A stretch of DNA of 38,845 nt from a bacterium (GTDB lineage: Bacteria; Patescibacteriota; Saccharimonadia; Saccharimonadales; Saccharimonadaceae): positions 1-38,845 of the forward strand of contig JAJXYZ010000042.1 of NCBI GenBank assembly GCA_021780305.1. Direction: 5' to 3'. Positions within the stretch are counted from its first letter, which is position 1. The number at the start of each line of letters is the position of its first letter. The notes under the pieces are model-generated. The model made no database searches. It saw only the letters and a program-made list of their open reading frames with translations, and was not told the origin of the DNA. Both the position numbers and the translations under genes were made by a program. Shown in pieces: positions 22,803 to 23,255 of this stretch.

Positions 22803-22858
22803 TATTTAGATATTAAAAAAGCCCAAATGGGCAATTGTAGAGCTGACAAAGTTTTGCG

Positions 22859-22892
22859 TGAGGAGAGGGAGTCATGTGACACCCTCTCCTCA
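22859..22892. other. Perfect 11-bp GC-rich inverted repeat (TGAGGAGAGGG / CCCTCTCCTCA) with 12-nt loop at the edge of the GC-rich block
   Basis: Read directly. There is no flanking U-tract on either strand, so it is not a canonical intrinsic terminator. Confidence 0.7.
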
Positions 22893-22910
22893 ACACCTCA
22901 GTTCGTCGTC

Positions 22911-23255
22911 TTAACTTGGGCTAGTGAACCGGGTTACGAGCACCCAGACCACCAACAGCGCGATTGACCCGATTGCGGTCAGTGCTAGTATCCCTCCGTT
23001 GAACGACATCCAGTTGACCGACGTCCATCCGGTCAAGAGCAGCACCTCTAGCAGTACTAGGCTGATGAGGTGGATGCCAAAGCCGATGAAGGCCATACCG
23101 CTGTAGTACAGCCAAGCAGCAAGCATCAACGTGATGATGGCCGCAAGGCTGACGATGACGATGGTCGTGACGCTGAAGTTCCAAACTCCGTAGGTCTGCA
23201 TGTTAATCCCGTCTGAGGTGCACTCTGGCACCTCGATCGATTGAGAAATGCACAA
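22911..23255 (-). CDS. Small three-TM membrane protein encoded in a GC-rich (foreign-looking) block
   Basis: The track ORF starts at TTG 23255; the likelier ATG start is 23201 ('MQTYGVWNF...'). Three hydrophobic helices. Codon third positions are mostly G/C, unlike neighbouring genes. Other frames here give Arg/His-rich junk. Confidence 0.45.
   Translation of the reverse strand: MCISQSIEVPECTSDGINMQTYGVWNFSVTTIVIVSLAAIITLMLAAWLYYSGMAFIGFGIHLISLVLLEVLLLTGWTSVNWMSFNGGILALTAIGSIALLVVWVLVTRFTSPS

Follow-up and report, generated by a model that had tools for sequence, protein, structure and literature searches.

Between the genes gap and rpiB of an environmental Candidatus Saccharibacteria (Saccharimonadales) lies a short block of GC-rich DNA, which is the subject of this study. 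The genome, labelled G000, is a metagenome-assembled genome of 737 kb in 81 contigs, and the window, by which we mean the whole stretch of DNA that was analysed, comprises the 38,845 nucleotides (nt) of contig JAJXYZ010000042.1 (assembly GCA_021780305.1). The block spans positions 22856-23253 and carries an open reading frame (ORF) of 96 amino acids (aa) on its minus strand. An earlier note had taken it for a likely foreign insertion with a small membrane-protein gene, possibly derived from a high-GC actinobacterial host. Our analysis leads to a different view: the block is likely one copy of a Saccharibacteria-specific, self-contained single-gene cassette. The frame of this cassette is conserved. 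The ORF inside belongs to one small family whose members evolve very fast, and in other species an unrelated orphan gene takes its place. A cassette family with such an RNA frame is apparently undescribed, and no published description of the frame was found in the literature searched.

The unit between gap and rpiB

The block has a G+C content of 55.0%, compared to a genome mean of 44.0%, and the two adjoining spacers are far lower at 25-30%. The hand counts in the earlier note were exact (36, 33 and 33 G+C of 60 in three parts of the block, against 25/60 in rpiB). Among the 400-bp windows of the genome, the block falls in the top 0.7% (z = +2.8), with about 17 other places equally GC-rich. 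The excess is confined to the third codon positions of the 96-aa ORF. G+C at first, second and third positions (GC1/GC2/GC3) is 0.47/0.43/0.77, where the genome means are 0.52/0.40/0.41 (GC3 standard deviation 0.06), and the ORF ranks first in GC3 among 733 proxy genes (z = +5.7), so the impression that its codon endings are unlike those of its neighbours was correct. GC1, GC2 and amino-acid usage are normal for the host genome, with Ile, Leu, Val, Thr and Ser abundant and Arg and Pro scarce.

Judging from its sequence, the block is a complete, autonomous transcription unit (Table 1). The promoter, the leader hairpin, the position of the start codon, the word CTGAGGTG, the GC-rich hairpin and the terminator can all be read in 12 relatives, and in 11 of these 12 the promoter stands at the same distance with 9-12 of 12 consensus positions. 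The start codon follows the leader hairpin by 13 nt and leader element b by 10 nt, with a weak Shine-Dalgarno sequence, AGACGGG, between hairpin and ATG. At the other end, the T-run of the terminator comes within 12 nt of the gap stop codon. Our terminator consensus scan did not list this terminator because its stem has just 4-5 bp. Because rpiB is driven from a promoter of its own, it forms a transcription unit apart from gap; the block indeed lies between two such units, as had been proposed.

The ORF encodes a small membrane protein. Its true start is the ATG at 23201, which gives 96 aa; the longer 114-aa version from TTG 23255, which the earlier note had kept as an option, is not supported by the relatives, all of which share an aligned M-x-x-Y-G start. 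Hydropathy indicates the three transmembrane (TM) helices already noticed on first reading, and an AlphaFold model (predicted local distance difference test score, pLDDT, 94) shows an N-terminal beta-hairpin and helices at residues 11-33, 37-61 and 69-93. The predicted topology is N-out, C-in. The YG and W..W motifs and an ORF length of 92-112 aa are kept across alleles of 26-45% protein identity, and in the closest pair the ratio of nonsynonymous to synonymous divergence (dN/dS) is 0.31. The product probably sits in the envelope and evolves under diversifying or relaxed selection. No family was found for it in Pfam, PHROGs or NCBIfam, and a fold search of the model against the PDB gave no meaningful match (best E-value 3.9). 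Queried with the single 96-aa sequence, a word-index search of proteins likewise gave no match; matches came when an alignment was used. The genome holds no second copy of the ORF.

The G000 allele differs from most others at its end. It stops at a premature UAA, with CTGAGGTG standing 10 nt past the stop, and lacks the basic C-terminal tail of most alleles. Past this stop, the codons GAC GAC are still present and match the -DD- of the tail type found in the relative G021. The G000 copy may thus be somewhat degenerate.

Table 1. Features of the gap-rpiB junction (positions in the window).
Feature	Position	Strand	Remarks
gap (GAPDH)	21786..22802	+	Pfam Gp_dh_N, Gp_dh_C; synteny kept; convergent neighbour
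Cassette intrinsic terminator, GCCCAUUUGGGC then U6 (GCCCATTTGGGC then T6 as DNA)	22815..22832	-	Hairpin and T-run in every relative
Perfect GC-rich 3' hairpin UGAGGAGAGGG / CCCUCUCCUCA, without U-tract	22859..22892	-	Repeat search
Tail element a' CUGAGGUG	22894..22901	-	Complement of leader element
Cargo ORF, 96 aa + stop	22911..23201	-	YG motif in beta-hairpin; three TM helices; GC3 0.77
Leader element b GCACCUCAGA	23212..23221	-	3' arm of leader hairpin; complements a'; mimics anti-Shine-Dalgarno
Leader hairpin GAGGUGC-CAGAGU-GCACCUC	23215..23234	-	Single occurrence in genome
Cassette sigma-70-type promoter TTGACT-17-TATACT, extended -10 TG	23266..23294	-	Promoter scan; predicted leader ~58 nt
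Perfect 9-bp AT-rich inverted repeat AAAAAGTCA / TGACTTTTT	23285..23308		Between divergent promoters; overlaps cassette -35 box
rpiB promoter TTGCGC-17-TATACT, leaderless type	23307..23344	+	-10 about 6-7 nt before ATG
rpiB	23342..23791	+	Pfam LacAB_rpiB; divergent neighbour; first gene of pentose-phosphate operon

Relatives, cargos and composition

A profile search that covered 1.84 billion representative proteins returned 26 relatives, all of 85-130 aa. DNA context was read for 11 of them, and all 11 lie in Saccharibacteria-type gene neighbourhoods; a word-index search added four more relatives, all between gap and rpiB. A homologous ORF occupies the same place in the same orientation in six more genomes or contigs (G021, identical to P0001; G013, identical to P0003; P0002; P0004; G053; G051). 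Together with G000 these seven carriers form one clade in a tree of rpiB, rpe and tktN (SH-aLRT support 96), from which we conclude that the unit has been inherited vertically within the clade. In the nearest sisters of the clade, and in many other Saccharibacteria, gap and rpiB are separated by 27 nt.

Within the clade, the cargo changes far more rapidly than its surroundings. Protein identity among the cargos is 26-45% (78% in one sister pair), compared to 87-96% for gap and 83-97% for rpiB, and dN is 0.5-0.8 for the cassette compared to 0.025-0.035 for gap. Cargo evolution is about 20 times faster than that of the neighbours. Mean pairwise DNA identity is 0.40-0.60 for the ORF, 0.71 for the leader hairpin, 0.80 for the terminator and 0.70-0.89 for the flanking genes.

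The same frame is found well beyond this clade. In many other Saccharibacteria species, gap-rpiB spacers of 470-830 bp hold a promoter (TTGACA-17-TATAAT with TG), a GAGGTGC-N4-6-GCACCTC hairpin with AGA directly after it, a start codon that in nearly all copies comes 13-16 nt past the hairpin, a stop codon TGA within TGA(G/A/C)GTGC, a GC-rich hairpin and a terminator. Among the cargos inside are a protein of 154-169 aa that combines one TM helix with a helical part, acidic proteins of 84-108 aa that are soluble, and a number of further membrane proteins. They fall into at least 12 clusters without mutual BLASTP, DNA or frame-shifted similarity, and none of these clusters has a Pfam family. Cargos are swapped exactly between the leader word and the tail word, with frames that are about 85-90% alike; in one group of species (L083, L105, L108, L120, L123, L134, L139) the 3' hairpin and its surroundings are near-identical around unrelated cargos. 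Of the 401 genomes of the family, 18 have the exact leader pattern, usually as a single copy, and they represent 10 of 95 genera; the reversed control pattern matches one genome. Complete units, promoter and terminator included, stand at other chromosomal sites as well: between prfB and a racemase gene (L081), in G317, and between acetyltransferase and trehalose-phosphate synthase genes (L312, L314).

These distributions changed our picture of how the slot was filled. A single insertion at the base of the clade into an empty site had been considered, and it holds for the G000 clade only. Many genomes that had been classed as having some other insert hold the same frame with another cargo, which indicates that the slot is older and more dynamic. 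On the gap tree, the three-TM cargo beside gap requires at least three gains or losses, and at least three separate lineages have a cassette there. Saccharibacteria are naturally competent (PMC10633639), and competence together with conserved flanks would be enough to exchange cargos at a single site. None of the inspected copies of the cassette has a linked recombinase gene.

Several other origins were tried and rejected. A target-site duplication at the ends of the unit (TTTAGATAT / TTTCGATAT, compared by eye) is too weak to claim. A protein pattern search of IMG/VR found no relative among viral sequences, and the leader DNA pattern gave only chance-level matches there, none with the protein. 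The idea that new cargos arise by frameshift of old ones failed for lack of any cross-family DNA or frame-crossed protein similarity. A diversity-generating retroelement (RVT_1, bAvd) lies at L081:4542-5826, 0.8 kb from a cassette copy; the ORF does not behave as its target, as there is no template repeat, no repeat links the reverse transcriptase and bAvd of L081 to the ORF, and variation spans the whole ORF.

Other genomes hold different DNA between gap and rpiB. L045 and L089 (G017) have a 1.8-kb insert with neither the three-TM gene nor the leader word, in which an element of about 60 nt is repeated twice (frames reading ...FTSIDTIAMLMSP.GRKVN...). In L061 (G007) and L062 (G020), two species of one genus, an ORF of about 410 aa on the opposite strand reads, by eye, like pgk (phosphoglycerate kinase). 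L060 (G022) and L033 (G015) have a divergent rpiB-like paralogue (35-39% identity), also on the opposite strand, that is apparently broken in two; in G015 it appears as two ORFs interrupted by masked bases.

The unusual composition follows the cassette. All alleles at the gap-rpiB site have a GC3 of 0.64-0.87, compared to 0.39-0.56 in their own gap and rpiB genes, and across 12 family members the range is 0.62-0.87 against 0.29-0.68 in flanking genes. Distant members agree (L083, 0.82; G200, from another genus, 0.86; G317, 0.80), and in L081, from a genome of 52% G+C, the cargo has the same GC3 as its flanks, 0.62. The unrelated cargos reach 0.60-0.91, with gap and rpiB flanks at 0.34-0.61. 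High GC3 is therefore a trait of the cassette cargo, whatever the composition of the host genome. In the only pair close enough for a direct measurement (G021 and P0002), synonymous divergence (dS) is 0.36 in the cassette, compared to 1.6 in gap and saturation in rpiB. Values of 0.36 against at least 1.6 in the flanking genes indicate that the synonymous sites are constrained. GC3 is probably kept high by selection, with RNA structure as one candidate cause.

What is new here includes this direct dS measurement and a gap-rpiB slot with at least 12 cargos in at least 10 genera. A GC-rich islet in a reduced genome, which would usually be read as a fresh import, is in this case an old resident whose synonymous sites are apparently selected to be GC-rich, and this calls for caution in composition-based detection of horizontal transfer in Patescibacteria. 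The cargos are mostly membrane or small acidic proteins; with their rapid evolution, this is the profile expected of genes that mediate contact of episymbionts with hosts, phages or competitors.

Predicted pairing between the ends of the mRNA

The two ends of the predicted mRNA are complementary. Reversed and complemented, the leader word GCACCUCAG(A) gives the (U)CUGAGGUGC that stands at the stop codon, and in most relatives the UGA of tail element a' is the stop codon itself. When 25 modules, which are not independent of one another, are arranged as a 12-pair leader/tail helix, 80% of cells are standard pairs, and shifting the partner by 1-3 columns lowers this to 23-45%. Changes on both sides occur in six leader/tail pairs, a number reached by 0 of 500 shuffles. 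Position 2/27, for instance, is C-G six times and U-A six times. In individual modules, CACUUC is paired to GAAGUG (L127), both sides are lengthened together as GCACCUCUUUUU with AGAAAGGAGGUGC (L081), and a weak local hairpin accompanies a long-range helix of 13 pairs (L312). The neighbouring 3' hairpin varies in sequence between modules and keeps its pairing, with compensatory changes in 8 of 10 consensus pairs.

Folding energies are also unusual. Among the minimum-energy folds of eight full-length predicted mRNAs, five contain the long-range pairing and three the local leader hairpin; the two are mutually exclusive. For the G000 mRNA the folding energy is -173 kcal/mol (z = -5.5 compared to dinucleotide shuffles), and in this fold the leader GCACCUC pairs with a third GAGGTGC word inside the ORF. 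This third word lies at 23042-23048 on the minus strand, in the codons for L-E-V-L-L, and holds the sole acidic residue of the second TM helix. Against synonymous-codon shuffles within each ORF, which preserve the protein and its codon usage, z averaged -1.9 over the 12 family members and -1.4 over 13 other cargos. As a control, 24 pieces of flanking genes gave z = +0.3 +/- 0.6, with none below -1 (12 members compared to 24 controls, Mann-Whitney p = 2.6e-5). No known RNA family accounts for the structure: Rfam 15 gave nothing at gathering score in the window and only noise up to E = 10 in 22700-23400, and in 19 related loci its sole match was one tRNA, with no hammerhead in the tail.

Our tentative reading of these patterns is that the mRNA may be closed end to end. 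During transcription, the leader would fold into its local hairpin. Once the tail has been made, the 3' arm of the leader, GCACCUCAG, would leave its hairpin partner and pair with CUGAGGUGC at the stop codon, and the neighbouring GC-rich hairpin would clamp the 3' end. The outcome would be a compact, closed mRNA in which decay, ribosome access or both are coupled to translation, and the GC-rich third positions would serve the folding of this mRNA. It is tempting to speculate further that the unit is a portable expression frame, in which a ribosome terminating at the stop codon melts the clamp beside the start site and so couples translation, re-loading and mRNA life-span, with a pool of interchangeable, fast-evolving orphan genes that must use GC-rich synonymous codons in order to fold; we regard this extension as doubtful. 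If it holds, the frame would amount to a gene-expression unit of a new type, from which ultra-small bacteria could draw lineage-specific genes. The design is concrete for post-transcriptional control in bacteria with few known regulators, and two of its parts are new here: a leader subtype whose palindrome mimics Shine-Dalgarno/anti-Shine-Dalgarno pairing, and a tail word that overlaps the stop codon.

A number of points weigh against this reading. Transcription, the transcript ends and the closed form are predictions. Most leader/tail positions are invariant, so the covariation rests on few of them, and the 25 segments were cut and registered by hand, which leans toward the proposed structure. 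Element a' repeats the sequence of the 5' arm in the leader hairpin, so it could be conserved not for pairing but as a word that a protein or the ribosome binds in both places (GAGGUG is Shine-Dalgarno-like). In G000 itself, a' no longer overlaps the stop codon because of the premature UAA, and the minimum-energy fold of a slightly shorter G000 transcript keeps the local leader hairpin. The folding excess is uneven: 2 of the 12 members, and several of the other cargos, have z near 0. Putative highly expressed genes of the genome share the preference for C-ending two-fold codons, so translational selection could supply part of the GC3.

Alternative readings, known systems and neighbouring features

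The cargo could instead be a membrane-damaging protein, type-I-toxin-like or holin-like, with the closed mRNA acting as a translational lock as in hok/sok and aapA1/IsoA1. We consider this unlikely. Type I toxins are usually shorter than 60 aa and have one TM helix. The cassette protein is likewise small and hydrophobic and its distribution is patchy, but at 92-112 aa and with three TM helices it is two to three times larger and lies outside this size range. Three helices with a predicted N-out/C-in topology and, in most alleles, a basic tail are the layout of a class I holin; however, no endolysin partner was found in the neighbourhoods, and there was no holin match in PHROGs or Pfam (PADLOC was not searched). 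The toxin mRNAs hok (tac/fbi) and aapA1/IsoA1 are held in fold-back locks, and the full-length aapA1 mRNA, once folded, is not translated before its 3' end has been processed (PMC5416894, PMC6733600). The cassette mRNA resembles them in its predicted high degree of structure, in 5'-3' complementarity with covariation and in a local metastable hairpin that possibly forms first, yet sequestration of its Shine-Dalgarno sequence is not evident in the predicted structures. Provisionally, there is no sign of an antisense RNA: the 12 modules scanned have no conserved antisense promoter, with only a weak site in G000 (9/12 consensus positions). Moreover, many cassette frames hold soluble acidic proteins, which are unlikely toxins.

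A second possibility is that the high GC3 reflects ordinary translational selection in a very highly expressed gene, with no role for RNA structure. The near-consensus promoter with its extended -10 would fit such a gene, and so would codon choice in part: ATC, TTC, TAC, AAC and CAC are enriched in the putative highly expressed genes of the genome, and the ORF makes 20 of 22 such choices in their favour. In four-fold families, however, the putative highly expressed set favours T-ending codons (GTT, ACT, GCT, GGT) and the ORF favours C- and G-ending ones. No ribosomal-type or housekeeping gene of the genome exceeds a GC3 of about 0.45. The codon shuffles point the same way: they keep codon usage and lose folding energy, so codon preference alone is insufficient. 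Translational selection as the whole explanation is therefore distinctly unlikely.

The conserved words might also act as DNA rather than RNA. In this scenario GAGGTGC-N6-GCACCTC and the tail GAGGTGC would be recombinase cores of an integron-like or Xer-like kind, and GC-biased gene conversion would lift GC3. The exchange of cargos exactly between two words in an otherwise similar frame, the 7-6-7 geometry of the leader, as in core sites of tyrosine recombinases, the presence of the frame at several genomic sites and its repeated appearance beside gap would all be accommodated. An integron gene cassette consists of an ORF and a hairpin-forming attC site. The present units are similar in that interchangeable, mostly orphan ORFs are each followed by a structured palindrome whose structure rather than sequence is kept. 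Unlike integrons, they have no IntI and no attI, and each site holds one cassette with its own promoter and terminator. The integron core sites GTTRRRY / RYYYAAC are absent from the 3' hairpins, and no tyrosine recombinase is adjacent at the inspected loci, nor is a recombinase gene of any kind linked to them. Promoter and terminator travel with the unit, so the mobile unit is larger than the word-to-word segment. The words also keep a fixed distance from the start codon (13-16 nt) and from the stop (TGA inside the word), which fits a role in RNA or translation. Within the clade, alleles follow the species tree, and competence with conserved flanks could swap cargos without a special site (PMC10633639). 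We therefore regard recombinase sites as a very unlikely explanation.

We give almost no credence to the idea from which this study started, that the block is a recent foreign fragment, possibly from a high-GC actinobacterial host, that has not yet ameliorated. The block is a sharp compositional outlier, sister lineages have gap and rpiB only 27 nt apart, and cultivated Saccharibacteria live on actinobacterial hosts (PMC10633639). These points made the idea reasonable, and part of it stands, since the short spacing in sisters marks the block as an accessory unit. Its recent foreign origin does not, given that the unit is clade-wide and vertically inherited. The few relatives among 1.84 billion proteins, wherever context was inspected, stand in Saccharibacteria-type gene order. 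Only GC3 is raised: GC1, GC2 and the residue make-up are unlike those expected of a 65-70% GC genome. Across the clade, protein divergence is saturated with GC3 unchanged, the synonymous sites are conserved rather than decaying, and no relatives were found in the viral contigs searched. The earlier note had itself proposed that the same composition throughout the lineage, together with a lack of high-GC homologues, would speak against its host-fragment idea. This is essentially what we observe, as the seven-carrier clade keeps a GC3 of 0.64-0.87 and no high-GC homologue was found, so the idea fails by its own test.

Equally hard to credit is a structured non-coding RNA with an accidental ORF: the RNA does fold beyond expectation and GC-rich sequence is poor in stops, with other frames also largely open, but the three-base GC periodicity is strict, the ORF always starts 13-16 nt past the leader hairpin and ends at the tail word, its hydrophobic pattern and motifs are conserved, the AlphaFold model is confident, dN/dS is below 1, and the other frames are not consistently open. 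An overlapping gene in an alternative frame was rejected as well, with stops in the +2 frame of 7 of 12 members; this frame is mostly open because T is rare at third positions.

Phage morons and the minimal mobile elements of Neisseria are autonomous promoter-ORF-terminator units or exchangeable genes between conserved genes. In outline, the cassette is like them: one accessory gene with its own promoter and terminator sits between conserved genes, its composition is unlike that of its neighbours, related genomes have a different gene in the same gap, and no transposase or integrase is linked. It differs in that a non-coding frame (leader hairpin, tail word and GC-rich hairpin) is conserved across unrelated cargos and several chromosomal sites, in lying on a Saccharibacteria chromosome rather than in a prophage, and in an odd composition that is probably selected rather than a mark of recent import.

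For the proposed closure, the fold-back of the hok and aapA1 mRNAs is one precedent (PMC5416894, PMC6733600). Another is the Bacillus subtilis hbs mRNA, where a 14-bp interaction of the 5' and 3' untranslated regions is proposed to govern how RNases gain access and to link stability with translation (PMC5737220). The hbs and cassette transcripts are both short mRNAs for a small protein with a long-range helix between leader and 3' end, which in the cassette is predicted. Unlike hbs, a single conserved housekeeping gene, the cassette offers a portable frame for many unrelated genes; its 3' partner overlaps the stop codon and its 5' partner has an alternative local hairpin.

Both bounding hairpins described in the earlier note are real (Table 1). 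The AT-rich one at 23285-23308 is peculiar to this genome, as it is not kept in the closest relatives, G021 and G013; it may serve as an operator-like site or may have arisen by chance. Past the block, the plus strand continues with rpiB-rpe-tktN-tktC and further genes. The sequence GCTTATACT stands 4-10 nt (mostly 5-8) upstream of the rpiB ATG in 48 of 51 short-spacer genomes, whether or not a cassette is present, and where gap abuts rpiB the -35 box of rpiB lies inside the last gap codons (TTGCACAAG TAA).

Elsewhere in the genome, ORFs with a GC3 of 0.63-0.71 occur at C48:891-1259, C15:6890-7943, C77:647-1177, C14:9610-10569, C29:1059-2318 and C68:1385-1729. These may be cassettes with other leader types. 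A perfect consensus promoter is found at C15:7644-7943, and C68:1385-1729 has a 12-nt leader/tail complement. A crude genome-wide count for the GC3-rich ORFs of G000, with starts set at the most upstream start codon, tells little either way: leader/tail complements of at least 8 nt were present in 8.7% against 11.4% of genes. Finally, outside the window, L289:1100-3300 (contig C42 of G000, about 12.6-14.8 kb) reaches 72% G+C beside a tRNA gene. Its product is a lipoprotein-like protein of 339 aa that is rich in Pro, Ala and Thr, and every codon position of the gene has an actinobacterial style of composition. As foreign or host-derived DNA, or as a mis-binned or chimeric contig, this stretch is a better candidate than the block at 22856-23253.

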